A stretch of 20,004 nucleotides of DNA. Source: a virus (taxonomy: Duplodnaviria > Heunggongvirae > Uroviricota > Caudoviricetes). The DNA is taken from IMG/VR virus record IMGVR_UViG_2698536418_000005; one strand, 5' to 3'. Positions 1 to 18,076 of this stretch are shown here, in pieces. The notes below the pieces were generated by a model. That model made no database searches and was not told the origin of the DNA. It saw nothing but the letters and a program-made list of their open reading frames with translations. The position numbers were made by a program, and so were the translations under genes. Within the stretch, counting starts at the first letter, position 1, and every line of letters starts with the position of its first letter.

Positions 1-1342
1 CGGTATCGGTAGCGACGTTGCTCGGCATGTTCTCAAGCTGCGACGCACCTGTAATTTGCTGAATAGCCGTTCCGGTGTACTGCAATAGCCCAGCAAGAGC
101 AGGAGGCATTTGTGTCGGAGGTGTCCAGCCAGCAACCTGAGCCTCTGAAATGACCGTTCCGTTTTTGTCCTTCTTGCTGGTCATGGGAAGAACTGCAGGT
201 CTTTTCTTATTCCTCTCTGCCCAGTGATTCATTAATGGACCGGGAATGAAATCAACATCCACGATAGGAATGCCATCGCCGCCAGCCTGAGTAGCGTTAT
301 CTGCAATCATGGAAACCATCAGGTTCTCAAGACGCTGTGCATCCATCGCTTTTGCTGCGTGGCCTTCGATTCGCTCCTGATTATCAACAAATGAACGACG
401 CCCATATACCGGGATGAGAGGAATATGTTCGCCCGGAATACGTTTCGGTTCTTCCAGCCATTCAGCGCCAGACAGAAGACCGCAATAAACTCGGCGTTTC
501 TTCACCGTTCGCTCGCCAATCAGTTCGAATGCACCATCGGTCAGCTCGTCGACAATATCTTTGATTTGCTCTTCATCATAAATTGCCGTTTCTCCGCTAA
601 CAGGGTTGCGCCACGCCGTGAGCTTCACCTTCTCTATGCGAACTTCGTAGTAGCGTCCAACATAGATGGCATCGGGCGTTGACCAGTCATACTGAGTACC
701 AGTGTCATCACGAGAAAGGCTTGCTGCGATGGAATCAGGGTATTCAGCCTCGAACGCTTTGGGCGTCATGGAGAACATTTCCATAGCCCACATGGCATCA
801 GAGCGGTCATATTGCTTGCTGTCCTGATCGAAGAAGACGCATGTCGCCGGGTCGTAAACAGGAAGAAGGCTGATGCGTCGCTGCTCGTTACTCGGATCCA
901 TTTCATCTTCGTAATCGGCACACATGCGGAAACAACCGAATCCGCCCGTTACGGCATCATCAAATGCGTTATCACACGCTTCGCCACCGGATGTTTCCTG
1001 ATAGTCAGCGCGGAATTTGCCGTTCATCTTTTCGGCTAACGCTTCCGATGCCTTATCGTCCTTAGGCCTGAATTTAACGCTGATGCGATTCTGTCGATAC
1101 TCGCCAATGATGCGATCACATTCACGGGCAATCTTATTCAGTTCAAAGCGCGGGTAATGCTCAAACCTGCCTTCATCAAATGAGTAACCAGCGTTTGTGC
1201 TGCCTTCCCACTGTGCGCCGGACACCCGGACGAAACGTTGAGCCTCAATAATCTGCTCACGCATATCCTTCGTTGCTGACCAGGCATTATCAAAGTTGCA
1301 CAGCACCTTGCGATGCCAGTCAGTCATCTTTTTTTCTGCCAT
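1..1342 (-). CDS. Probable portal protein, partial (C-terminus lies beyond the window edge)
   Basis: Open frame on minus strand starting ATG at 1342 (MAEKKMTDWHRKVL...) one nt after the terminase large subunit stop, running without a stop to position 1. Not in ORF track because it has no stop in the window. Portal call rests on position downstream of TerS-TerL; no motif recognised. Confidence 0.5.
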   Translation of the reverse strand, partial: MAEKKMTDWHRKVLCNFDNAWSATKDMREQIIEAQRFVRVSGAQWEGSTNAGYSFDEGRFEHYPRFELNKIARECDRIIGEYRQNRISVKFRPKDDKASEALAEKMNGKFRADYQETSGGEACDNAFDDAVTGGFGCFRMCADYEDEMDPSNEQRRISLLPVYDPATCVFFDQDSKQYDRSDAMWAMEMFSMTPKAFEAEYPDSIAASLSRDDTGTQYDWSTPDAIYVGRYYEVRIEKVKLTAWRNPVSGETAIYDEEQIKDIVDELTDGAFELIGERTVKKRRVYCGLLSGAEWLEEPKRIPGEHIPLIPVYGRRSFVDNQERIEGHAAKAMDAQRLENLMVSMIADNATQAGGDGIPIVDVDFIPGPLMNHWAERNKKRPAVLPMTSKKDKNGTVISEAQVAGWTPPTQMPPALAGLLQYTGTAIQQITGASQLENMPSNVATDT

Positions 1343-1343
1343 A

Positions 1344-2759
1344 TCAACCTACACCACAAGGAATTGAGTAACTGGAATAGTCGGGTTGCGAAGCCGACTC
1401 CGGGCAATGCATACACATCATCAGCGCATCAGCCAGGTTAGGAGATGGAATACCGAGCTTCTGCTTCATTTCGACCTTAGTCATAAGCTCCAGCTTCCCG
1501 TTATTATTGAATTTGCGCTGAATCTGCGTCAGTTCTGCAAACAGCTTCTCCAGCATCTTCTCGCCTATCACTTCTTTGTCGAAACTCAGCATGTCGTCGG
1601 GGTCTGCATACTCACCGTGGACAACCGCCCGATATGTCAGATACAGCCTGTCAGCCAGCGCGTAATAGAATTGCGCTCGCTTATTGCGGAATACATCGCC
1701 AATAGTACGAACGTTGTCGCCCTGTACGACTTCATCGGCCCATGCTCCGGCCTGATATGGTGCATCTTCATCGAATGGCGATTCGCTGCCCTTGAACATC
1801 GTGGCGGTGATTTTCTTGCCGGAGAACGCTTCCGTTGTCTGTCTGCGTAGCCCCGCACCAACACCATCACCATCCCACAGGTAATGGTCAGCGCCGTCTT
1901 CAATCGCCAGCGAAGTAGCCCAGTCAGCACCATCGTTGATGTCCATCAGCAGACCTTCGGCAATGCGCTTAACCACCGAACCGTGACGCGATGCGTAACC
2001 TTTAGCATCCGGCCCTGTATCTGACGGGTCATGTGCAGAAACAACCGCGCCTTTCGCTTTCCATCCGAGTTTCTTGTGCGCATCGGTTGCGGCTTCAAGC
2101 CATTCACGTTTGATGATTGCCATATCACTTGCGCTTACTGGCTCACCAAGCCAGATGTGACGATACAGTGTCGGATTTCTGCGTTTGCACTCTTCCATCT
2201 CCAGACGGAGAACTTCAGGAAAGTGCGGGTTGTCGGTGTAGTTCACCGTCAGCAGACAAATATCATCAGGAGGGTTTACGACGAATCGCTGATAGGTATC
2301 GTCGAGGATGTTTTTCGGGTTGAAGCTCACCCATATTTCAGAGAACGGCTTACGGATGGTTGGTATCAGGATATCCCACGATTCCTTTGTTACCGCTTCC
2401 GCTTCTTCCACCCAGCAGATATCAATACCTTCTAGCGATTTAATCTTCGTCGGGTTGTTTTTGATGCCGTAGAACATGAATTCAGCATTCGTTCCGAGAT
2501 GACGAATCATTGAACGCTGAATTTCAAACTCAGCCGAATACCCTTCACGCTCGATGGTATCTTCAAGCAACCGGATTACCGAATCGCTGATACTGTTTTG
2601 CAGTTCACGAGCGCAGAGAATACGCACTGGCTGCCGACGCACCGCTTCAACAAGCAGTCTCGCGATTGCCCATGACTTACCGCTACCTCGACCGCCTTTG
2701 GCGACTTTGTAGCGATGCGCCTCAATGAACGGTTCAAAGATAGGATTAATCGAGGTCAT
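1344..2759 (-). CDS. Terminase large subunit (PBSX/Terminase_3-like)
   Basis: 471 aa ORF; Walker A-like KGGRGSGKS near N-terminus, acidic nuclease-type C-terminal half; start overlaps upstream small-subunit stop (ATGA). Confidence 0.9.
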   Translation of the reverse strand: MTSINPIFEPFIEAHRYKVAKGGRGSGKSWAIARLLVEAVRRQPVRILCARELQNSISDSVIRLLEDTIEREGYSAEFEIQRSMIRHLGTNAEFMFYGIKNNPTKIKSLEGIDICWVEEAEAVTKESWDILIPTIRKPFSEIWVSFNPKNILDDTYQRFVVNPPDDICLLTVNYTDNPHFPEVLRLEMEECKRRNPTLYRHIWLGEPVSASDMAIIKREWLEAATDAHKKLGWKAKGAVVSAHDPSDTGPDAKGYASRHGSVVKRIAEGLLMDINDGADWATSLAIEDGADHYLWDGDGVGAGLRRQTTEAFSGKKITATMFKGSESPFDEDAPYQAGAWADEVVQGDNVRTIGDVFRNKRAQFYYALADRLYLTYRAVVHGEYADPDDMLSFDKEVIGEKMLEKLFAELTQIQRKFNNNGKLELMTKVEMKQKLGIPSPNLADALMMCMHCPESASQPDYSSYSIPCGVG

Positions 2760-3196
2760 TTTCCGAATAGAGTGCTCATCGGTGATGTTTCAATCTGAAT
2801 TGCGCCGCCGTCTTTGCCTGTTAGCTCGTGATCAACCTTGTCGCGCCATTTATCCTTCTGTCGGTTCTTAAGCCAGAAAATGGCAGCGGTTGTATCAGGC
2901 GGGTAATACTTCTCAAGCGGAGTTTCGACAATTCTGTTTTCAATAACACGAATATCGATATCTGGAGCCACGAAGCCCATAGCGCGTTGATAAAGACGAT
3001 CACTAACTTCTGCATCAGCGACGGCCTTACCCTTTTTTATGGACTCCGAAAACTTAGGATAATCAAGCTTCCACTTGTTAATAGTTGACTCACTGACTTC
3101 GAAGAAATCAGCAAGCTCTGCATCGGTGTAGCCCAGCAAGCACAGTTTGCGTGCCTGTTCGGCGTACGCCTCTTGATACTTTGTTGGGCGCGCCAT
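2756..3196 (-). CDS. Terminase small subunit (HTH-containing)
   Basis: 146 aa ORF immediately upstream of and overlapping TerL; N-terminal HTH-like segment (PTKYQEAYAEQARKLCLLGYTDAELADFFEVSESTINKW). Confidence 0.75.
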   Translation of the reverse strand: MARPTKYQEAYAEQARKLCLLGYTDAELADFFEVSESTINKWKLDYPKFSESIKKGKAVADAEVSDRLYQRAMGFVAPDIDIRVIENRIVETPLEKYYPPDTTAAIFWLKNRQKDKWRDKVDHELTGKDGGAIQIETSPMSTLFGK

Positions 3197-3198
3197 GT

Positions 3199-3441
3199 TT
3201 ATGCTCCGGTAGTGAACAGGTCTAACGCTTCCTTCGATTTACGCACCGCTTCGATTGTGCGGGTCGTGATATCTGAATTAGCGCCGCCTGACTGGAAGTG
3301 AATTTTGAATAGCTCAAGCTTCAACTCGTCAGTGCCGATGAATTGAAATGCTTCTTCTGCGGCTGCGTTCTGGTTCATGACCAGTTTGTAAATCTCTAAC
3401 TGGAATTTCTGTTCTTCAGTCATGGGAATAATCTCTGCCAT
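3199..3441 (-). CDS. Hypothetical protein (80 aa) upstream of terminase genes
   Basis: ORF with GGAG RBS about 8 nt upstream of ATG, tightly packed 2 nt before TerS; no recognisable motif. Confidence 0.5.
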   Translation of the reverse strand: MAEIIPMTEEQKFQLEIYKLVMNQNAAAEEAFQFIGTDELKLELFKIHFQSGGANSDITTRTIEAVRKSKEALDLFTTGA

Positions 3442-3798
3442 TATTGGCTCCGTTTATCCGTTAAAAGGGATATCAGTTAAGTTATCCCGTGTAGGGTATA
3501 AGCCATTGTCGAGACCACTCATTGAATGGTCTCTGCAATAACCGATGTCTTTCCATCAGTCCGCCACCACAAAGAATCTTTTTTGCCATAAGGCTGGAGG
3601 TTCATCTTTCAGTGGCTGCCAGTGTTATTTCCCCACTTACTGGCTTGGGTTGTTTCGCTGTACTGCCGTAACTGGTTACCCAGAATAAATTCCGGTTTCA
3701 TTATCAAGCCCACCCGTAGATGGGCTTTGTAATGGATAGCCGTTGCTCAGTTCTCGTAATGCTTTGATTTTTCCGATAACGCAGTTTTGCGTTTGCCA

Positions 3799-4320
3799 TC
3801 AGCACGCGATATCGAGAGTCAACTGCAGTTGCTCGCGCCAGTACTCAACATTTGCTTCAATAACCGGCTTATCCCATCGCCAGCGAGCCATCTCTCTTGC
3901 CCCATTGCTGGCTTTTGATTTCCGGTCATCGCGAATGCGACATGCTTGCTCATATTTCTGCTGCTCAGTCAGTTCACCGCGAAGCAGACTATCAATGTGC
4001 AGGTCGCACCATACGGAGAATTTCGGATCGCACCATCTTGCAAAGGCAACTGATAACTTTGGATGCAGCCATGTTCCGCCGCCCCTGTCCTTTCGTGCCT
4101 TGCTTGTTTTTACATACCCGGAATCACGGGTATGTAGAATTTTCGATGGTTCACCTGAATAAACCTCATCCAGAGCTCTAACGTATTCGAGAGTTTCAGC
4201 ATTGGACAACCAGTGATCCAGACGCTTCCCGAAACGTTTTGCAATATCAGTGGCATTAATCCAGCCATCAGTATTGAAGCGGATAGGTTCGCCTTTGTAA
4301 TTTAGTGGAACGATATTCAT
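3799..4320 (-). CDS. KilA-N domain protein
   Basis: 173 aa ORF; N-terminal region has the KilA-N/APSES-like pattern (INATDIAKRFGKRLDHWL ... GTWLHPKLSVAFARWCDPKFSVW). Confidence 0.7.
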   Translation of the reverse strand: MNIVPLNYKGEPIRFNTDGWINATDIAKRFGKRLDHWLSNAETLEYVRALDEVYSGEPSKILHTRDSGYVKTSKARKDRGGGTWLHPKLSVAFARWCDPKFSVWCDLHIDSLLRGELTEQQKYEQACRIRDDRKSKASNGAREMARWRWDKPVIEANVEYWREQLQLTLDIAC

Positions 4321-4664
4321 AGCGTCTTACCTTTTAGAAAGATGAGCCTGTTCGCACAGAAAAGCCGCCCCGAGATGGTCGCCACCATATACGGCAGTTC
4401 TCAGGCTCAGCTTTCTGAAAGACTCGGGATTGTTACGCGCTGCGATGCGCGGTTTACTGCAGATGTAAAAAAGCCCCGCTAATGCGAGGCTAAATCCTGG
4501 TATTTGTAATGACTGGCTCTTATCTCAACGCAGCCCCTTACCGCGCGCCAGATGCTCAATATCAAGCATCAGCAATGAGATGTTTAATCTGGATTCACTC
4601 CAGAAGTGATCACCACCCTGTCTACAGAGCCAGATGTGAAGGATGATGAGTAAAATTATCGCTA

Positions 4665-5102
4665 TCATCGAAGGCATTGCGTCCTGATGTATTCCTGCAA
4701 GTAGTTAACCTGCGCGGTTATCTTGTCGATTCCACTTCGGAGACGGTAATAATTGAGTTCAGCATCTGCTGTAAGTCTTGGGCTTTCTCCATCGCCCATG
4801 CCGCTGGCTCCGGTCGTTGACTTTGCACAGGTGGCGGCGACTTGCAGGCGCTTACGCCCAGCAGAAACATCAGCACGGAGACTTTCGATAGTCGCGTTAG
4901 CATCAGCAAGCTCCTTTGTGTATCTGGCGTCAAGTTCTGCTACATCACGTTGACGCTTCTGCATATCAGCGATGATGGACGTGGCTTTATCGCGCTGCTC
5001 TTTGTAGGCGATGGCGTTATCACGGTAGTGATTAACAGCCCATGACAGGCAAACGATGATGCAGATAACCAGAGCGGAGATAATCGCGGTTACTCTGCTC
5101 AT
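4665..5102 (-). CDS. Rz: Rz-like i-spanin (lambda-like N-terminus, divergent C-terminus)
   Basis: 145 aa ORF; start overlaps R stop (ATGA); N-terminal TM segment [31 protein letters not shown] matches lambda Rz as recalled, remainder diverges. Confidence 0.8.
4718..4903 (-). CDS. Rz1: Rz1-like o-spanin lipoprotein embedded in Rz (+1 frame)
   Basis: 61 aa ORF from internal Met of track ORF 4718..4933; signal-like segment with lipobox-like VSAC followed by Pro-rich stretch; fully nested inside Rz as in lambda. Confidence 0.65.
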
Positions 5103-5575
5103 ACCTCAATCTCTCTGACCGTTCCGCCCGCTTCTTTGAATTTTGCAATCAGGCTGTCAGCCTTATGCTCGAACTGACCATAACCAGCGCCCGGAAGTGA
5201 AGCCCAGATATTGCTGCAACGGTCGATAGCCTGACGAATATCACCGCGATCAATCATCGGTAAAGCGCCACGCTCTTTAATCTGTTGCAGTGCCACAGCG
5301 TCCTGGCTTTTCGGAGAGAAGTCTTTCAGGCCAAGCTGCTTACGATAGGCATCCCACCAACGGGAAAGAAGCTGGTAACGTCCGGCTGCTGTTGATTTGA
5401 GTTTGGGGTTTAGCGTGACAAGTTTGCGAGGGTGATCGGAGTAATCAGTGAATAGCTCTCCGCCAACAATGACGTCATAACCATGATTTCTGGTTTTCTG
5501 TCGTCCGTTATCTGTTCCCTCTGACCACGCCAGCATATCGAGGAACGCCTTACGTTGATTATTGATTTCCACCAT
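5099..5575 (-). CDS. R: Endolysin R (lytic transglycosylase), lambda R-like
   Basis: 158 aa; sequence [39 protein letters not shown]... matches lambda R from memory; overlaps S by 17 nt as in lambda. Confidence 0.95.
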
Positions 5576-10955: not shown

Positions 10956-12332
10956 TCATACGTCAGCCCCTTGTGCATATCGTCTGCCACGCGAAGCAGG
11001 TGCATTTGATGCTGTGCAAATCTGTCTGGCTTCATCCTGGTCACATGCAACAAAGTGTCCGTTGCAGAACCGCTGGTAAACCGTACCAAGCGAGCCAAAA
11101 CGGTTTTTCGTCACAATGATTTCAGCAAATGGCGCGGCGCTACTGTTCTCGTCATATACCGCCTCCCGATAGAGCATGATGATTGAGTCTGCGTCCTGCT
11201 CAATGCTTCCTGAATCACGCAAATCTGCGTTTGTCGGGCGTTTGTTTGGTCGCTTCTCAACATCGCGCGAAAGCTGACTCAGGGAGATAACAGGCGTTTT
11301 CAGGTCTTTCGCCATCGCCTTCAGGCTTCCGGAGATGTGAGCAATTGCGAGGTCGTTGCGATCTGCTTTCGGCTTCTCAATCAGGCCAAGATAATCCGCC
11401 ATGATGAGTGACAGGTTTGGATTTTCCTGTTTGTGCCGTTCTGCGATTGAGCGAATTTCTTCGACCGATAACCGCGAGGCATCGACTACCCATACATCCA
11501 AATCTGCAAGCTGACTCATGCCGTTAGCAACACGCGCCCAGCCTTCGTCATCCATCGATGCAGGATTTCGCAGTACGCTAACCGACATCCTCCCGGCGTT
11601 GGCAATGCTTCGCTCTGCAATCTGCAATGCGCTCATTTCCATTGAGAAAATCAATACTCCGCGCCGAACGTCAGAACCAGGAATAACGCGGCTTGCAACG
11701 CCTTCGGCAATATTCAGAGCCAGTTCGGTTTTCCCCATACCAGGACGAGCAGCGATTATCACCAGGTCTTCCGCGTTCATCCCTCCGGTGATGGCATCAA
11801 GTTCTTCGATTCCGGTCTTCAGGGTATCTGACTCTTCTCCGTTCCTCAGACGCCTGTCAAGCGTGTCAGTGTAGTCAGTAATGATTTCCCCTAACCGTAC
11901 AGGTTTTACTTCGTCACGGGGCTTTCTGATGGCTGAAAGACGCTTTACAAGCTCATCCATCGCCTGACTCGATGCGTCGATGGTCCCGCCCTGAATTGGT
12001 TCACGCATTTCATCCATGATTTCCAGCACCAGACGGCGGTGATAGTTATCCGCGACCATTCCGGCATATCCTTTCAGGTTTGCGGCACTCGGGCAGTTTT
12101 TGCTGGTCATCAGGATTGACGTGAAATGCTCCTCTCCGCACGCCTCGGCAACCATCAGCGCGTCGATTAGGTTTCTGTTTCGCGCCTGCTTGCGGATAAC
12201 CTCGAAGGCTTTCCGGTAGAGCGGAATTGAAAACGCTTCCGGCTCCAGCGTTGCAAGAACGTCACTGGCGGTTGGAGTTAATCCACCAATCAGCAGGCCA
12301 CCGATAACGCTCGCTTCGATATCCTGTCTCAT
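10956..12332 (-). CDS. Replicative DNA helicase (DnaB family)
   Basis: 458 aa; Walker A ARPGMGKT, DnaB-like N-terminal domain and RecA-like C-terminal core; start overlaps O-like gene stop. Confidence 0.9.
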
Positions 12333-13276
12333 GCAATCCCCCTGTCTGCAAACTTCCCTTCCCGTACTCCCGTTAACGAATCTTCCCTCAGCAGGTAATC
12401 AAAATCTGCCGTCCAGCCAGTGTCGTTGTCTCCGAAGTAAAACGGCTTGGCCTGATGCACAAACGCCCTGACATACGCTCTGAAACCGTCCACGTTTGGC
12501 GTTTTCAGTTGCGGGATGATTTTCTTCAGGCGGCGTTTGCGTTTCTCGTTGACCGCAACAGCATGCGGAAGTCTGTCACCGACTTCGGTGTTGTAGGCGT
12601 TCAGGAAGGATTCGTAGTCGATTCGTTCTGCCTTGCGACGTTCAGGTTTAACCTGCCCATCGCCTCCCCCATTGGGGGGTAGGGGGGTATTATTTATATT
12701 CTTGTTAATACCTTCTTGTTCATGATGTGCGGTTGTTTGTGCGGCTTCATGTGCGCTTTCATGTGCGGTATGTGCGCTGAAAGCCGCGCCATTACTGGCT
12801 TCGTCATGTGCGGCATCATGTGCGGTTGTTTGTGCGGCTTCATGTGCGGGTGAACTGTCCATTTTTTGAGCATATTCATGGTAATTTGTGATGGTTATCA
12901 CACGACCTTTTTGCTTCTCCCCATCAATGGAGATCATCCCCTCTTTCACAAAAACCTGAAGCATCCGCTCAACCTGATCACGGCTTGCCGGCTTGCCATG
13001 CCTGTCGCATAACTGAAGACCTAAATCAGCTGCTGTCACAACCAGTTGACCGGGTTGCAGATGCCATTCATGACCTTTGAAATTCGCTTTGTATGGCTTT
13101 CTGGCGGCATTCAGGAGAAGGTTTTCCCACAGGGTGCGAAGATAAACATCTTTCGCCCATGACTGTTTCAGAATGCTCCGGTACAACGGAATGTAACCAG
13201 TTTTCTGGTTCTCCATCCTGTTGCTCCTGCGCTCGTGTGCGGCGCTGAAATCGTAGATTTTTGCTGTATTGCTCAT
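12329..13276 (-). CDS. Replication initiator, lambda O-like (different iteron specificity)
   Basis: 315 aa; N-terminus [10 protein letters not shown] resembles lambda O start (MTNTAKILNF as recalled); central His/Ala-rich linker encoded by the iteron DNA. Confidence 0.75.
12721..12850. repeat. Origin of replication iterons inside the O-like gene
   Basis: About 9-10 copies of (C)ATGTGCGG at roughly 11-12 bp spacing, flanked at 12670-12720 by GGGGGGTAGGGGGGTA and an AT-rich stretch; analogous to lambda ori within O. Confidence 0.65.
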
Positions 13277-13278
13277 AA

Positions 13279-13551
13279 CTACCTGCCTTGACGAAAGACC
13301 TTAAGAACATCGTTAAACTGACTTACGGATATGTCTTCTTTGAGAAGCTTTTCCAGAAATGCGTTTGGAATGAACGTATATCCCTCCTCTTTTGGTAGAG
13401 ACGAGAGCAACGCCCTCGCCTCAGCCTTCAGAAGCTCAGTTCTGGCAACTTTCACAAAAGAGATTTGAGTTCTTTCATCAATGGAACGAAGGAAGCGCAA
13501 ACGCTTAGCTTCTTTGTGTGTATCAGGTGGATTAAAGCCTTTGTTTCGCAT
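13279..13551 (-). CDS. Hypothetical protein (90 aa) between cII and O-like gene
   Basis: C-terminal 90 aa of track ORF 13279..13860, starting at in-frame ATG with GAGGT RBS; the upstream part of that track ORF is an alternate frame through cII. Confidence 0.45.
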   Translation of the reverse strand: MRNKGFNPPDTHKEAKRLRFLRSIDERTQISFVKVARTELLKAEARALLSSLPKEEGYTFIPNAFLEKLLKEDISVSQFNDVLKVFRQGR

Positions 13552-13559
13552 ATAATTAC

Positions 13560-13628
13560 CTCGTTGGATGTTGTTAAAATTCCATTTGTATTTGATCAGA
13601 ACGCTCGGTTGCCGCCGGGCGTTTTTTA
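13560..13628 (+). ncRNA. oop-like antisense RNA with terminator
   Basis: Plus-strand ...TTCAGAACGCTCGGTTGCCGCCGGGCGTTTTTTATT matches lambda oop 3' end/terminator as recalled; perfect TATAAT at about 13551-13556 upstream; antisense to cII 3' end. Confidence 0.45.
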
Positions 13629-13867
13629 TTGGTGAGAATCGAAGCAACTTGTCGTGCCAATCGAGCCATGTCGTCGTCGACAACACCCCATTCAAGAACA
13701 GCAAGCAGCATTGAGAACTTTGGAATCCAGTCCCTCTTCCACCTGCTGATCTGCGACTTATCAACGCCCACAGCTTCCGCTGTCTTCTCAGTTCCAAGCA
13801 TTGCGATTTTGTTAAGCAACGCACTCTCGATTCGTAGAGCCTCGTTGCGTTTGTTTGCACGAACCAT
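13574..13867 (-). CDS. cII: Transcriptional activator CII, lambda cII-like
   Basis: 97 aa from internal Met of track ORF 13574..13927: MVRANKRNEALRIESALLNKIAMLGTEKTAEAVGVDKSQISRWKRDW... matches lambda CII from memory. Confidence 0.95.
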   Translation of the reverse strand: MVRANKRNEALRIESALLNKIAMLGTEKTAEAVGVDKSQISRWKRDWIPKFSMLLAVLEWGVVDDDMARLARQVASILTNKKRPAATERSDQIQMEF

Positions 13868-13877
13868 ATGTAAGTAT
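13845..13877 (+). promoter_or_regulatory. PRE-like CII-dependent promoter
   Basis: Plus-strand TTGC-N6-TTGC (TTGCGTTTGTTTGC) overlapping the cII start, with AAGTAT -10-like element downstream; directed toward cI through cro antisense, as in lambda. Confidence 0.6.
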
Positions 13878-13936
13878 TTCCTTAGATAACAATTGATTGA
13901 ATGTATGCAAATAAATGCATACACCATAGGTGTGGT

Positions 13937-13969
13937 TTATTTTGATGCCCTTTTTCAGGGCTGGAATGT
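13937..13969 (-). promoter_or_regulatory. nutR (boxA + boxB) N-utilisation site
   Basis: Minus strand: AGCTCTTAC (boxA-like), then GCCCTGAAAAAGGGC (boxB hairpin), between cro and cII; followed by weak ATGCA/TGCAT hairpin at tR1 position. Confidence 0.75.
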
Positions 13970-13986
13970 GTAAGAGCTGGAATGTC

Positions 13987-14202
13987 TTAAGCGGCTTTGT
14001 GTTCCGGAGGGAACACGTCATCAAGACTGACTTTTGCGCCTAACTTGTTTAGGCATGCAACAAGAGCGCGGCATGTTTTAAGGTCTGGGAAGCGACGACC
14101 AGATTCCCAATGCCCAATAGCTCCCTGTGTGCATCCAACCGCCTTAGCAAGTGTTGTTTGAGAGATATTCAGTGACTCTCGATATTTTCGTAGGTTGCTC
14201 AT
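13987..14202 (-). CDS. cro: Cro-like repressor (HTH_XRE type, not lambda Cro)
   Basis: 71 aa from internal Met of track ORF 13987..14442 (MSNLRKYRESLNISQTTLAKAVGCTQGAIGHWESGRRFP...); divergent from cI; GGAGGG RBS. Confidence 0.8.
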   Translation of the reverse strand: MSNLRKYRESLNISQTTLAKAVGCTQGAIGHWESGRRFPDLKTCRALVACLNKLGAKVSLDDVFPPEHKAA

Positions 14203-14228
14203 ATGCCCTCCATAGTAACCATGAGACA

Positions 14229-14257
14229 ATAATACGATATGTACTTTTGAAATGCAA
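14229..14257 (-). promoter_or_regulatory. PR promoter with overlapping operator (OR1-like)
   Basis: Minus strand TTGCAT -35, 17-nt spacer, TATTAT -10; spacer/-10 region AAAGTACATATCGTATTAT closely resembles the PL spacer AAAGTACAAATCGTACTAT. Confidence 0.5.
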
Positions 14258-14313
14258 ACAAAAAATACATCTTGTGCATGGATGGTTTTAGTACAGAGCG
14301 TAATAATAAGGGT

Positions 14314-14973
14314 ATGAAAATGAAATGGTATGAACTGGCTAGATCCAGAATGAAAGAGCTCGGCATAACTCAAGAGAAGTTGGCTGAAGAGCTTGGTATG
14401 ACGCAGGGTGGAATTGGTCACTGGTTGCGCGGATCTCGTCATCCATCTCTTGACGAGATTGGTGTGGTGTTTAAATACCTTGGTATTGATAGCGTCTCAT
14501 TCAACCACGACGGTACATTTTCACCTGTTGGCGAATACTCATCTATCCCCGTTAAAAAACAATATGAGTACCCTGTTTTTTCTCATGTTCAGGCCGGGAT
14601 GTTCTCGCCTGAGCTTAGAACCTTTACCAAAGGTGATGCGGAGAGATGGGTCAGCACAACCAAAAAAGCCAGTGATTGTGCGTTCTGGCTTGAAGTTGAA
14701 GGTAATTCCATGACCGCACCAACAGGATCCAAGCCAAGCTTTCCTGACGGGATGTTAATTCTCGTTGACCCTGAGCAGGCTGTTGAGCCAGGTGATTTCT
14801 GCATAGCCAGACTTGGTGGTGACGAGTTTACTTTCAAGAAACTGATCAGGGATAGCGGTCAGGTGTTCCTACAACCACTAAACCCGCAATATCCAATGAT
14901 CCCATGCAATGATAGCTGTTCCGTTGTAGGGAAAGTTATCGCCAGCCAGTGGCCTGAAGAGACATTTAGTTAA
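14314..14973 (+). CDS. cI: CI repressor: novel HTH_XRE N-domain fused to lambda-like S24 autopeptidase C-domain
   Basis: C-terminal half ([36 protein letters not shown]...[26 protein letters not shown]...[26 protein letters not shown]) matches lambda cI from memory incl. Ala-Gly cleavage site and Ser/Lys dyad; N-terminal domain differs. Start 14314 or 14320 (track ORF begins at TTG 14272). Confidence 0.9.
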
Positions 14974-15004
14974 CAGCCTCACCACTCTAAAGCACACAAC
15001 AATA

Positions 15005-15033
15005 ACCCGACCTTAGTGTCGGGTTTTCTTTTT
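15005..15033 (+). terminator. Rho-independent terminator after cI
   Basis: ACCCGAC-cttagt-GTCGGGT stem-loop followed by TTTCTTTTTT, about 30 nt after cI stop. Confidence 0.65.
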
Positions 15034-15098
15034 CCAAAATATAAACCCATTAAATACAAAGCGTTATAAAAAACCAATTATATTTAGAACAGTTTGTA

Positions 15099-15127
15099 TT
15101 GACTCGATAAAGTACAAATCGTACTAT
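15099..15127 (+). promoter_or_regulatory. PL promoter with overlapping operator palindrome (OL1-like)
   Basis: TTGACT -35, 17-nt spacer, TACTAT -10; palindrome AGTACAAATCGTACT at about 15111-15125 overlaps spacer/-10. Confidence 0.5.
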
Positions 15128-15166
15128 TTAGCCATCAGCAGGACGCACTGACCACCATGAAGGTGA

Positions 15167-15197
15167 TGCTCTTAAAAATTAAGCCCTGAAGAAGGGC
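15167..15197 (+). promoter_or_regulatory. nutL (boxA + boxB)
   Basis: TGCTCTTAA (boxA-like) followed by GCCCTGAAGAAGGGC (boxB hairpin), upstream of N; matches lambda nutL from memory with one boxA mismatch. Confidence 0.8.
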
Positions 15198-15369
15198 AGC
15201 ATTCAAAGCAGAAGGCTTTGGGGTGTGGTGAAGGGTTCATGGATGGGAATATGTCGCACGTAAAGCGGCGAGGCCTGCGGAACTATTGCCGAATTGAAGT
15301 CGGCCGAAGCAGGTCGAAATGGGTCTCCCACCTACCACACCACCAAAGCTAACTGACAGGAGAATCCAG

Positions 15370-15702
15370 ATGGATGCACAAACACGCCGCCGCGAACGTC
15401 GCGCAGAGAAACAGGCTCAATGGAAAGCAGCAAATCCCCTGTTGGTTGGGGTAAGCGCTAAACCAGTTAACCGCCCTATTCTCTCGCTGAATCGCAAACC
15501 GAAATCACGAGTAGAAAGCGCACTGAATCCGATAGACCTTACAGTGCTGGCTGAATACCACGAACAGATTGAAAGCAACCTGCAGCGTATTGAGCGCAAG
15601 AATCAGCGCACATGGTACAGCAAGCCACGCAGTGAAATGGGTGTGACTTGCTCAGGCCGCCAGAAGCAACGCGGAAAATCAATTCCAGCTTATTACGATT
15701 GA
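15370..15702 (+). CDS. N: Antiterminator N, lambda N-like
   Basis: 110 aa from internal Met of track ORF 15319..15702: MDAQTRRRERRAEKQAQWKAANPLLVGVSAKPVNRPILSLNRKPKSR... (Arg-rich boxB-binding motif); CAGGAG RBS; C-terminal about 20 aa diverge from lambda. Confidence 0.95.
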   Translation: MDAQTRRRERRAEKQAQWKAANPLLVGVSAKPVNRPILSLNRKPKSRVESALNPIDLTVLAEYHEQIESNLQRIERKNQRTWYSKPRSEMGVTCSGRQKQRGKSIPAYYD

Positions 15703-15710
15703 GGTGAGCC

Positions 15711-15848
15711 ATGCTCAAGACAGTCAAACGCCGACTTTACAAAGAAGGTAGATATTCATGCCAGTTGCCAAAATGCGACACAACAAAATGGAGTGTCGAT
15801 GATTGGTGTAACTGGATAGATAGATGCGGAACTTGGTGGGATAAATAA
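15711..15848 (+). CDS. Possible small Cys/Trp-rich protein (45 aa)
   Basis: ATG 8 nt after N stop, GAGGTGAG RBS overlapping the N stop; MLKTVKRRLYKEGRYSCQLPKCDTTKWSVDDWCNWIDRCGTWWDK; below track cutoff. Confidence 0.35.
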   Translation: MLKTVKRRLYKEGRYSCQLPKCDTTKWSVDDWCNWIDRCGTWWDK

Positions 15849-15902
15849 CAGGTAACTTAAGCGGATTTATTTTCGCAGCAAACCACTTATTTGAGGTGAG
15901 AT

Positions 15903-16373
15903 ATGACAAAATCATGGAGCGTACCTTTTCCTGAATCAGAAACTGAACATGATGGAATGCCTGTTTTCTGGAGATTCCAGGCGACAGTTGAAGAAGATGG
16001 GATAAAAATATTCGCACTTCAATATATAGCTTTTCATCAGACAGACCATTATGCATGGTTGGTTCCTGCGCATTGGATTGTTAATTTTAAACCAGTACCA
16101 AATCAGTGGTTACAGGAATGGAAACAAAGGAGAAATAGATATGCAATTAAGAAAGTAGCAAAAAATGCAGAAAGATCTTTTGCATTCCCAACGAAGAAAC
16201 TTGCCATTGAAAGTTTATTGCGCCGGAAGAAATACCATTTAATGAGAATCAAACAAGATTTGGCTGTTGTATCAACTCTTGTTGATGGGATGAAGAATAT
16301 TGATACATCAACACCAGATATTGAATATAACTTTGGACACAACCAAGAAACAGAAAATTGGGTATTCTACTAG
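15903..16373 (+). CDS. Hypothetical protein A (156 aa), AT-rich accessory cassette, first gene
   Basis: Track ORF with GAGGTGAG RBS 4-5 nt upstream of ATG; AT-rich DNA unlike flanking phage DNA; no recognisable motifs; basic C-terminal half. Confidence 0.6.
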   Translation: MTKSWSVPFPESETEHDGMPVFWRFQATVEEDGIKIFALQYIAFHQTDHYAWLVPAHWIVNFKPVPNQWLQEWKQRRNRYAIKKVAKNAERSFAFPTKKLAIESLLRRKKYHLMRIKQDLAVVSTLVDGMKNIDTSTPDIEYNFGHNQETENWVFY

Positions 16374-16420
16374 GACGCATAGTCGGCCTTTATTTTTGGC
16401 ATAAACAATATGGGGTAAAA

Positions 16421-16747
16421 ATGAAAGTTTTAATGGTTTATGAAAATGTTCCAGAGTCGACTGAAATCTATATTTTTGATGCCAATGAAGATGAAGTTAA
16501 CGATTTGAAATTGTCTCACGGCAATTACACAAATGCTAATTGCGATGAAAGTATCGAAAAAGCACTATCACGAGTTCTTGTCAGAATTAGTGTTCCAGAA
16601 CATTGTGATGATGATTGGCTTTCTTATTGTGGAGCGGTAAAAACTGATGCAGGAAAATGGAGTAAAAGTAAAGTTGATAACTCAACTCCAATCATTATGA
16701 AAGATAGTGATATTGAAATGGTAATAATAACCGGAATGATTATGTAG
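16421..16747 (+). CDS. Hypothetical protein B (108 aa), AT-rich accessory cassette, second gene
   Basis: Internal ATG of track ORF 16358..16747 preceded by GGGG(T) RBS-like element; acidic, Cys-containing (NANCDE, HCDDDWLSYCG); no recognisable motifs. Confidence 0.55.
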   Translation: MKVLMVYENVPESTEIYIFDANEDEVNDLKLSHGNYTNANCDESIEKALSRVLVRISVPEHCDDDWLSYCGAVKTDAGKWSKSKVDNSTPIIMKDSDIEMVIITGMIM

Positions 16748-16852
16748 GCTGCGAATAAGCACTGTGTATTCATTCCAACGAGTGAATACACGGAGCAATG
16801 TCGCTCGTAACTAAACAGGAGCCGACTTGTTCTGATTATTGGAAATCTTCTT

Positions 16853-16876
16853 TGCCCTCCAGTGCGAGGGCTTTTT
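16853..16876 (+). terminator. Rho-independent terminator downstream of accessory cassette
   Basis: GCCCTC-cagtgc-GAGGGC stem-loop followed by TTTTTTAT, about 105 nt after gene B stop and before cIII. Confidence 0.6.
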
Positions 16877-16943
16877 TATATGCATACCAATAACGCTTCA
16901 CTTGAGGCGTTTTCGTTATGCAATCAAACAGAAGGAGCATCCT

Positions 16944-17114
16944 ATGCAACAGTTCGCTATTGCAGGGGCGGCATCGGTTCGCCCTTTCAACCCGATTTTA
17001 TCGGTGCAGCATTCACGAAAAAATATTTTAACCGGAGCAGACTTTAAACAACCAAGAATGAAAAGTTTGCTCGAAAAGCTTTGGGATATTTTGAAACAAC
17101 AAGGCCGTCCATGA
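16944..17114 (+). CDS. cIII: CIII-like protein (FtsH inhibitor), lambda cIII-like
   Basis: 56 aa from internal Met of track ORF 16839..17114 (MQQFAIAGAASV...LLEKLWDILKQQGRP); resembles lambda CIII (MQYAIAGW...) as recalled; AGGAG RBS 7 nt upstream. Confidence 0.7.
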   Translation: MQQFAIAGAASVRPFNPILSVQHSRKNILTGADFKQPRMKSLLEKLWDILKQQGRP

Positions 17115-17269
17115 GTTTTACAGATAACTGGTCAGACGAAGAATTCATTCGTCAGATGAAAGAATTAATCGGTAACGAAGGAGATATTCATGTCACTTGC
17201 AACCACAGTGAAGGAGAGCAAGTTACAGAGACGCATGTACACGCAGAAAGCTCTCTGGTATCGCCATAA
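17111..17269 (+). CDS. Hypothetical small acidic protein (52 aa), kil/ea10 slot
   Basis: ATG overlapping cIII stop (ATGA): MSFTDNWSDEEFIRQMKELIGNEGDIHVTCNHSEGEQ...; no recognised motif. Confidence 0.4.
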   Translation: MSFTDNWSDEEFIRQMKELIGNEGDIHVTCNHSEGEQVTETHVHAESSLVSP

Positions 17270-17368
17270 TGGCGACCGCGAAGGAATGCGGGTATGCCTT
17301 AATTTGTCCCGAGTCGAAGTATTAAATCAGCGTTATTTCCTTGGGCCTTGTCCATTCTGAGGTGAATT

Positions 17369-18076
17369 ATGGATTTGAACAAATTCGATGAGCCATTCAG
17401 CCCTGAAGATATCGAATGGCGAATACAGCAAAGCGGTAAAACACGCGATGGCAAGGTGTGGGCTATGGTGCTGGCTTATGTCACGAACCGGGCAATCATG
17501 AAACGCCTGGACGATGTTTGCGGCAAAGCAGGATGGCGCAATGAATACCGCGATATTCCCAACAACGGCGGCGTTGAATGCGGCATATCAATAAAGATTG
17601 ATTCCGAATGGGTAACCAAATGGGATGCTGCTGAAAACACGCAGGTAGAAGCCGTCAAAGGTGGTCGTTCCGGTGCAATGAAGCGCGCTGCCGTTCAGTG
17701 GGGAATCGGTCGGTATCTGTATAACCTTGAGGAAGGTTTCGCACAAACATCTCTCGATAAAAAGCAGGGGTGGCACAGGGCAAAACTGAAGGATGGAACA
17801 GGATTTTACTGGCTCCCTCCATCGCTTCCGGGATGGGCAATCCCAGCATCAGATAACAAACCATCACCAGAAAATACCAACCAGAAATCTCCATCGGTTG
17901 ACTGCGAACAAATCCTGAAAGACTTCAGCGATTATGCGTCAACAGAAACTGACAAGAAAAAACTCATCGAGCGTTATCAGCGTGACTGGCAATTAATGGC
18001 TGGCAATGAGGATGCGCAGGCTAAATGCGTTCAGGTAATGAGCATCAGAGTTAACGAACTAAAACAGGCGGCATAA
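17369..18076 (+). CDS. Single-strand annealing recombinase (Rad52-family SSAP), Bet-analogous position
   Basis: 235 aa; GAGGTGA RBS; Rad52-like core with VQWGIGRYLYNL motif; directly followed by ssb. Confidence 0.65.
   Translation: MDLNKFDEPFSPEDIEWRIQQSGKTRDGKVWAMVLAYVTNRAIMKRLDDVCGKAGWRNEYRDIPNNGGVECGISIKIDSEWVTKWDAAENTQVEAVKGGRSGAMKRAAVQWGIGRYLYNLEEGFAQTSLDKKQGWHRAKLKDGTGFYWLPPSLPGWAIPASDNKPSPENTNQKSPSVDCEQILKDFSDYASTETDKKKLIERYQRDWQLMAGNEDAQAKCVQVMSIRVNELKQAA

Follow-up and report, generated by a model that had tools for sequence, protein, structure and literature searches.

Which repressor and operator specificity governs lysogeny at the immunity locus of this phage DNA, and is that specificity a new one? 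The locus lies in a 20,004-nt stretch of viral DNA (IMG/VR record IMGVR_UViG_2698536418_000005; the window denotes this whole stretch), where a sequence-only reading had described positions 13987-15200 as a hybrid immunity region, that is, a regulatory scaffold like that of phage lambda with a different repressor and operator specificity and no rexAB genes. The description as a hybrid region without rexAB is correct. Very probably, the locus constitutes the CI/Cro lysis-lysogeny switch and primary immunity region of an Escherichia coli prophage of the P22-like/lambdoid kind, in which a module of the VT2-Sakai type is set between flanks of lambda alleles. Judged by its sequence relationships, the immunity type is one already described, that of VT2-Sakai, the Stx1-converting phage, Nil2 and 2851, and not a new one.

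Mosaic layout and the two regulators

Relative to the usual lambda map the window is inverted, and its genes follow in the order cII (-), cro (-), a 111-bp control region, cI (+), a terminator, a second control region and N (+) (Table 1). This is the layout of a lambda-type switch: cI and cro diverge around a tripartite right operator (OR), and a tripartite left operator (OL) stands with the leftward promoter (PL) upstream of N. A blastn comparison with lambda resolved the region into four lambda-like blocks and two stretches without a lambda match, 13981-14562 (cro, OR and cI residues 1-83) and 15032-15132 (OL). What has been replaced is thus precisely the portion of the switch that sets its specificity. 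Recombination joints coincide with the stop codons of cro and cI, the linker of cI and the point where PL transcription begins, and lambda homology resumes at 15133, the position at which the lambda PL transcript begins. We regard the region as a clear textbook case of module exchange between lambdoid phages.

Both halves of the hybrid description are borne out by these comparisons. N, cII, nutL, nutR, the promoter for repressor establishment (PRE) and the cI C-terminal domain, which had been called lambda-like, lie in blocks 87-97% identical to lambda. The cI N-terminal domain and cro, taken for non-lambda helix-turn-helix (HTH) proteins, both belong to Pfam HTH_3 and are encoded by DNA unmatched in lambda. 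The region does not have the imm lambda specificity: DNA homology is missing over both stretches given above, its Cro is an HTH_3 protein whereas lambda Cro belongs to another Pfam family (PF09048), and the lambda operators are of the TATCACCGC... type. Thus, the overall architecture is shared with lambda, and cII, PRE, nutR, nutL, the arginine-rich motif of N, the cI C-terminal domain and the terminator that follows rexB are lambda alleles, whereas the cI N-terminal domain (weakly similar to that of lambda; 1lli, E=0.003), Cro and all six operators are unrelated in sequence and rexAB is absent.

The cI product is composed like a repressor: an HTH at the N-terminus is followed at the C-terminus by a LexA/S24 autocleavage domain, which includes an Ala-Gly site and a Ser/Lys dyad. 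Its C-terminal domain is identical to that of lambda CI at 133 of 136 residues and retains the Ala94-Gly95 cleavage site, Ser132 and Lys175 (numbered from the ATG at 14314); the prophage should therefore be SOS/RecA-inducible. The CI N-terminal domain and Cro are homologous to one another (35% identity, E=7e-13), and Cro aligns to the structure of the P22 C2 N-terminal domain. Both proteins contain the TQG(G/A)IGHW segment to which the sequence-only reading had drawn attention, as TQGGIGHW in CI and as TQGAIGHW in Cro, and in alignment this segment falls on helix 3 of the P22 C2 N-terminal domain, whose structure has been solved. Because they share it, CI and Cro are predicted to read the same operators; the homology of the two domains and the helix 3 alignment support the earlier proposal that a shared recognition helix would be consistent with common operators.

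In 434 and P22, repressor and Cro read shared operators. As in those phages, the repressor N-terminal domain and Cro of the window are paralogues, both of them all-helical HTH_3 domains, and their recognition helices are nearly identical. However, the window proteins are only remotely similar in sequence to those of 434 and P22 (P22 C2, E ~0.01), and the operator sequences differ.

Six operators and the putative switch

Six putative operators were located, three in OR (14230-14305) and three in OL (15052-15126). The candidate motif of the sequence-only reading, AAGTACAWATCGTAYTA, occurs without mismatch at 14230-14246 (-) and 15110-15126 (+), against an expectation of 0.04 occurrences with three or fewer mismatches, and the two sites also emerge from an unbiased search for repeats, as an inverted repeat of 20 nt with 90% complementarity. 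Both sites are real and overlap the spacer and -10 of the rightward promoter (PR) and of PL, as had been proposed, but they form an incomplete set, being two of the six, OR1 and OL1. A motif search across OR and OL, which that reading had put forward as a check, found sites above chance and yielded the six-site set. The half-pattern WARWACRNNNYGT matches only the six operator sites in the 20 kb (eight strand-matches vs 1.05 expected), OR1 and OL1 being matched on both strands.

A non-circular test was provided by a symmetrised position weight matrix (PWM) built solely from the six VT2-Sa operators (Table S1 of PMC10742460) and scanned over the window. Among all positions in the 20 kb, this matrix ranks the six sites 1-5 and 7. 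Moreover, OR1 is homologous to VT2-Sa OR1 (AAGTACATATTGTATTT), and OR2, OR3, OL1, OL2 and OL3 are each homologous to the VT2-Sa operator of the same name. OR1 also matches a 'putative operator' of AP005153, a record in which the homologous 17-mers are annotated under that term together with the same PR, promoter for repressor maintenance (PRM) and PL; its 'putative major rightward promoter' has the position of PR in the window.

The conservation of the sites points in the same direction. In an OL alignment of the two subtypes found among relatives, the operators and the -35/-10 hexamers are conserved and the inter-operator spacers are scrambled, which constitutes a phylogenetic footprint. In the OR alignment, substitutions are found at the outermost or central positions of the operators; OR2 is conserved at its ends and variable at its centre, and OR3 is conserved among relatives. 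Overall, the operator substitutions relative to relatives affect outer positions (1 and 17) or central positions 7-10, and the A-TAC...GTA-T core is kept. Positions 7-10 are probably not contacted.

A seventh operator was considered at 13577-13593 (AAATTCCATTTGTATTT), overlapping the cII stop codon, and was rejected. Its score of 12.1 compares with a mean shuffle maximum of 11.8, the 17-mer lacks the TAC core on one side and gives no match to the core pattern, and the resemblance is probably due to chance.

The arrangement of these sites suggests how the switch would operate. We infer that CI dimers bind the six 17-bp pseudo-palindromic operators, with an order of affinity among them, through half-sites of approximately (A/T)A(G/A)TAC(A/G) and a TAC-N5-GTA core, using a 434/P22-like HTH N-terminal domain fused to a near-lambda C-terminal domain. 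At OR1 and OL1, CI would occlude the spacer and -10 of PR and PL and turn off the cro-cII-replication and N-early-left transcripts. The centre of OR2 lies ~42-43 bp upstream of the cI ATG at 14314, likely the PRM start as in lambda, a placement that would suit PRM activation, and OR3, which overlaps a candidate PRM -10 (TAATAA, 14301-14306), would mediate negative autoregulation. By analogy with the lambda geometry, PRM could be positioned such that its transcript has a leaderless start at 14314. Cro, with its near-identical recognition helix, would bind the same operators and act as a counter-repressor that shuts PRM in lytic growth. The CI C-terminal domain would support dimerisation, pairwise cooperativity and OL-OR looping over ~0.8-0.9 kb, and cII/PRE, nutL/nutR and N would act as in lambda in establishment and antitermination. 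Finally, the PRM/PRE transcript would carry no cargo gene after cI and would end at the terminator that in lambda follows rexB.

OR1 is placed with respect to PR, and OR2 and OR3 with respect to the start of cI, much as in lambda, whereas the distances differ. From centre to centre, OR1-OR2 measures 33 bp and OR2-OR3 26 bp (24 bp and 23 bp in lambda), OL1-OL2 25 bp and OL2-OL3 33 bp; OR1 and OL1 are 880 bp apart, that is, an OL-OR distance of ~0.9 kb compared with ~2.4 kb in lambda.

Several observations weigh against this interpretation of the region. Lambda-style OR1-OR2 cooperativity is not guaranteed at a spacing of 33 bp, which also differs by 1 bp from the Sakai subtype, and OR2 does not overlap the PR -35, unlike in lambda. 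The OR2 score of 11.2 lies within the range of shuffled sequences (mean shuffle maximum 11.8) and is marginal when taken alone. The PRM hexamers are poor and the PRM start site is ambiguous, as is the cI start codon, which could be ATG 14314, ATG 14320 (with AAGGG 7 nt upstream) or ATG 14278, the start annotated in relatives, which falls inside OR2. The operators of AP005153 carry the label 'putative', and in the literature we found no report of CI or Cro of this family binding these operators; the only electrophoretic mobility shift assays found used lambda CI on VT2-Sa sites (PMC10742460).

Table 1. Coordinates of the immunity region and of adjoining features in the window
Feature	Position	Strand	Sequence or extent	Basis and remarks
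Lambda-like block 1	13578-13980		cII, PRE, nutR	blastn; 97.3% vs lambda 38649-38247
Lambda-like block 2	14563-14967		cI C-terminal domain	blastn; 94.6% DNA identity vs lambda cI C-terminal domain
Lambda-like block 3	14996-15031		last rexB codons and terminator	blastn; 86% vs lambda 35834-35799
Lambda-like block 4	15133-15626		PL transcript from its start, nutL, most of N	blastn; 87% vs lambda 35583-35104
cII, lambda allele	13574-13867	-	97 aa	Pfam Phage_CII 5e-48; 2/97 residues differ from lambda CII
PRE -35 region, CII-binding repeat	13845-13858	+	TTGC-N6-TTGC (TTGCGTTTGTTTGC)	read from sequence, inside the 97.3% lambda block
nutR	13947-13978	-	boxA AGCTCTTA (13971-13978), boxB GCCCTGAAAAAGGGC (13947-13961)	lambda-like block
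cro	13987-14202	-	71 aa	Pfam HTH_3 4e-12; all-helical (434/P22-type), not lambda Cro fold
PR	14229-14257	-	-35 TTGCAT (14252-14257), 17-bp spacer, -10 TATTAT (14229-14234)	promoter scan reports TTTGCA-18-TATTAT
OR1 (putative)	14230-14246		TAATACGATATGTACTT (= AAGTACATATCGTATTA on - strand)	PWM score 18.4, rank 2; overlaps PR spacer and -10
OR2 (putative)	14263-14279		AAATACATCTTGTGCAT	PWM score 11.2, rank 7, weakest; just upstream of PR -35 and putative PRM -35
OR3 (putative)	14289-14305		TAGTACAGAGCGTAATA	PWM score 15.2; overlaps putative PRM -10
cI	14314-14973	+		Pfam HTH_3 and Peptidase_S24
cI N-terminal DNA-binding domain and linker, non-lambda	14314-14562	+	residues 1-83	HTH_3 5e-11
cI C-terminal oligomerisation and autocleavage domain, lambda allele	14563-14973	+		Peptidase_S24 9e-29; PDB matches 3bdn, 8gmu, 1f39
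Intrinsic terminator directly after cI	15004-15025 (15004-15033 at its widest)	+		terminator scan; homologous to lambda terminator after rexB, 86% vs lambda 35834-35799
OL3 (putative)	15052-15068		AAATACAAAGCGTTATA	PWM score 15.2; kept while flanking spacers diverge
OL2 (putative)	15085-15101		TAGAACAGTTTGTATTG	PWM score 16.0; 3-bp overlap with PL -35
PL	15099-15127	+	TTGACT, 17-bp spacer, TACTAT	promoter scan
OL1 (putative)	15110-15126		AAGTACAAATCGTACTA	PWM score 20.7, rank 1; overlaps PL spacer and -10
nutL	15167-15197	+	boxA TGCTCTTA (15167-15174), boxB GCCCTGAAGAAGGGC (15183-15197)	lambda-like block
N antiterminator	15370-15702	+	110 aa	Pfam N36 1.6e-26
45-aa open reading frame	15711-15848		45 aa	phrog_1871; precedes the frames of the AT-rich block
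156-aa open reading frame	15903-16373	+ (PL-operon strand)	156 aa	phrog_1636; 98.6% DNA identity to 933W L0079
108-aa open reading frame	16421-16747	+ (PL-operon strand)	108 aa	phrog_4658

A known immunity group and its relatives

The DNA from cro through OR to cI is 92% identical to that of VT2-Sakai (AP000363), the Stx1-converting phage (AP005153), Stx2 II, Nil2, 2851, 1717, YYZ-2008 and dozens of O157 Stx phages. The window belongs to the VT2-Sakai type in having the same Cro, the same CI DNA-binding region and the same operator family at homologous positions. By the terms of the sequence-only reading, a known immunity type with other operators would have overturned it. The type is indeed a known one, but the operators proposed coincide with OR1 and OL1 of the family, so that the proposal is not overturned while its novelty is gone.

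VT2-Sakai-type repressors have been grouped with lambda CI in 'CI clade I' (PMC8951638). According to PMC10742460, the immunity region of this type was compared with that of lambda by Fattah et al. (2000), to whom the lambda-like C-terminal domain in CI of the VT2-Sakai family is also attributed. As the CI of the Stx1 phage carries a lambda-like C-terminal domain too, the entire family shares the hybrid repressor, and what is particular to the window within it is only that cII and N are also lambda-like. The VT2-Sakai/Stx1-type phages have three plus three 17-bp operators at homologous positions and the same layout of PR, PRM and PL. They differ in carrying, by the annotation of AP005153, an HK022-like cII and an HK97-like N where the window has lambda alleles, and in that ~1.5 kb of open reading frames (ORFs) lie between cI and OL where the window has none. 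Moreover, their OL is only 79% identical, with scrambled spacers, and the OR1-OR2 spacer is 1 bp longer in the window.

Such differences could be taken to indicate a diverged subtype with a new specificity, heteroimmune with VT2-Sakai and the Stx1 phage. Two clear subtypes do appear in the OR and OL alignments, the window, Louie and phi458 on one side and Stx1 and VT2-Sakai on the other; the module is ~92% and OL ~79% identical in DNA, each operator differs by 1-3 bases, and CI differs from Stx1-phage CI at a few residues beyond position 57. The matches in E. coli genomes are likewise split into two bands, with 212 records at an identity of at least 95% and 566 records at 90-95%. However, Cro is identical at 71 of 71 residues to the Cro of VT2-Sakai and of the Stx1-converting phage, and residues 1-57 of CI, the whole helix-turn-helix included, are identical to those of Stx1-phage CI. 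The operator substitutions are confined to outer or central positions outside the conserved core, and the VT2-Sa PWM still picks all six sites. A new specificity subtype was therefore rejected on the identity of the Cro and CI DNA-binding regions with those of the known type, and we consider it very unlikely. The same identity predicts homoimmunity of the prophage with VT2-Sakai-type phages.

Assignment to the VT2-Sakai type places the prophage in a defined and very common E. coli immunity group, that of the O157:H7 Sakai Stx phages, with which superinfection immunity and possibly repressor cross-talk are predicted. The specificity module alone is found in 773 of 5426 complete E. coli genomes (about one in seven), and the full mosaic (lambda-type cII, the cro/OR/cI module, no cargo and lambda-type N), likewise at ~98% identity, in 73 of them. 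Among phages, the full mosaic is present at ~98% in Louie (PQ850616), vB_EcoP-683R2 and Dewey, while vB_EcoP-720R6 and phi458 match it in more than one piece, phi458 with a cargo ORF after cI. Louie differs from the window by an HNH endonuclease gene between cII and O and by another gene set after N, and phi458 by a 348-aa ORF in the position of rex. For the window itself, the assignment provides exact coordinates for the six operators, PR, PL, PRE and the nut sites, and has little import beyond annotation.

A wider consequence might concern polylysogens. Since a C-terminal domain identical to that of lambda at 133 of 136 residues is joined to a different DNA-binding domain, here as throughout the VT2-Sakai family, CI may assemble with lambda-type repressors into mixed dimers, tetramers or OL-OR loops, leading to partial cross-immunity, dominant-negative interference or coupled induction. 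We think this unlikely; if true, mixed oligomers would establish cross-talk between heteroimmune prophages.

It is extremely improbable that the switch is defunct and the region a decayed or cryptic remnant in which the conservation is historical: an in-frame stop in the deposited VT2-Sakai cI indicates that such decay occurs in the family, and no 100% identical isolated phage was found (the phage collection holds no 100% identical record for the window, nor the E. coli genome collection for the cII-N segment), but cro, cI, cII and N are full-length with catalytic and cleavage residues intact, all six operators are preserved along with PR, PL and the nut sites, the replication, recombination, terminase and portal genes are intact and similar to those of CUS-3 and Kapi1, and the complete-genome phages Louie, 683R2, 720R6, Dewey and phi458 carry the module at 97-99% identity.

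In VT2-Sakai (AP000363, ~3918-3920) the stop is a TAG that stands, within the recognition segment of cI (GMT*GG), in place of the Gln codon, CAG, of the Stx1 phage and the window. As a consequence, the VT2-Sakai protein is annotated as an N-terminally truncated product of 169 aa without the HTH. Either this amber mutation is genuine or the deposited sequence is in error at this codon.

Related at a greater distance is the immC region of the Salmonella phage ST64T, where the annotation likens c2 and cro to the phage L genes. Identity with CI and Cro of the window amounts to 45% for C2 and 69% for Cro, and both proteins have the recognition segment TQGAIGHW/Y, TQGAIGHW being found in C2 as well as in Cro. 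The operator motif of the window, WARWAC-N-YGT, also clusters in OR and OL of ST64T (2751-2827 and 3593-3634; TAATACATTTCGTACTA and others). Unlike CI of the window, C2 has a C-terminal domain other than the lambda allele, and the flanks are of the P22 type (c1, gene 24). On these sequence resemblances, the VT2-Sakai type of E. coli and the ST64T type of Salmonella may share or overlap in specificity.

Lambda-type flanks, the position after cI and neighbouring genes

The CII-binding repeat in the PRE -35 region presumably functions as established for lambda PRE, and the predicted PRE transcript would extend to the right in the window, crossing cro in antisense before it enters cI. The boxA and boxB of nutR pair with the nutL copies as inverted repeats in the repeat search. 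N is identical to lambda N over residues 1-60, including the arginine-rich motif, and boxA and boxB are present downstream of both PL and PR, as expected for antitermination of the lambda N/nut kind. The last ~25 residues of N, at the end that contacts RNA polymerase, diverge from lambda N (...SKPRSEMGVTCSGRQKQRGKSIPAYYD vs ...SKPGERGITCSGRQKIKGKSIPLI), and DNA homology ends at 15626. In the terminator after cI, the window and lambda stems differ on both sides, consistent with compensatory changes. No family was found by Rfam over 12500-18000 (E up to 0.1), and thus no curated RNA element adds to this picture.

A Rex exclusion system is absent after cI, where the 78 nt between the cI stop codon and OL3 hold only the terminator; tblastn with lambda RexA, RexB, SieB, Ral and Ea10 over the 20 kb gave only noise. 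The earlier observation that cI leads directly to a terminator and PL, without rexA or rexB, thus stands. This position is occupied by rexAB in lambda, by ~1.5 kb of ORFs in VT2-Sakai and the Stx1 phage and by a 348-aa ORF in phi458, and it is empty in Louie and in the window. The empty state is one of several known among relatives; what follows cI may be rexAB, other ORFs or nothing, as in a slot for exchangeable cargo. In the empty-slot variant, the unusual 33/26-bp spacing of the operators and the short distance of 0.8-0.9 kb between OL and OR might conceivably also alter cooperativity and the stability of the switch.

The cargo of homoimmune relatives is unrelated, consisting of the 348-aa ORF in phi458 (3519-4565) and of orf22 and others in VT2-Sakai (4989-5510). 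These ORFs gave no match in Pfam or PADLOC and are candidate lysogen-expressed accessory genes.

It had also been suggested that the AT-rich cassette beyond N replaces Rex, the exclusion function having moved there from rexAB. The block at 15800-16850 is compositionally foreign (GC content 0.34-0.39 vs ~0.45-0.5 around it), it is located where lambda has the accessory genes ral, sieB and ea10, and its 156- and 108-aa ORFs have no known function. However, both ORFs are on the PL-operon strand, and the promoter scan gave no promoter-like site ahead of the 156-aa ORF, the only such site on the + strand ahead of the cassette's 3' end lying inside the 108-aa ORF; the cassette should therefore be silent or repressed in a lysogen, unlike rexAB, which is co-transcribed with cI. 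The cassette ORFs have no match in Pfam or PADLOC and no similarity to RexA, RexB or SieB, and in PHROGs they fall only into families of unknown function. Moreover, the 156-aa ORF is common among Stx phages, being present at 98.6% DNA identity in 933W, Stx2 converting phage I and many others; a literature search on 933W L0079 returned nothing. Most lambdoid immunity regions lack rex, so that nothing needs replacing. We did not retain this suggestion, to which we attach almost no probability.

Beyond the immunity region, the window as a whole is closest to the P22-like E. coli phages CUS-3 and Kapi1 (97% identity over ~55% of its length), and the term lambda scaffold therefore applies only to the cII-N segment. 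Terminase and portal genes are found at the left end (1-3200) and RecT-type recombination genes on the right, and the replication module is HK97-like, of the DnaB type. Between cII and the O-like gene, where no protein-coding gene is annotated in lambda, lies an ORF of 94 aa (13282-13563, -) that belongs to phrog_2519 (unknown function) and has no match in Pfam or PADLOC. Louie has its HNH endonuclease gene at the same spot, which makes this another variable slot. Inside the gene of the O-like replication initiator (12329-13276, -), a tandem array at 12738-12849 with a 12/24-bp period (TCATGTGCGGCT-like, ~4-5 copies) encodes a His/Ala-rich repeat and, by analogy with lambda O, probably represents the iterons of the origin.

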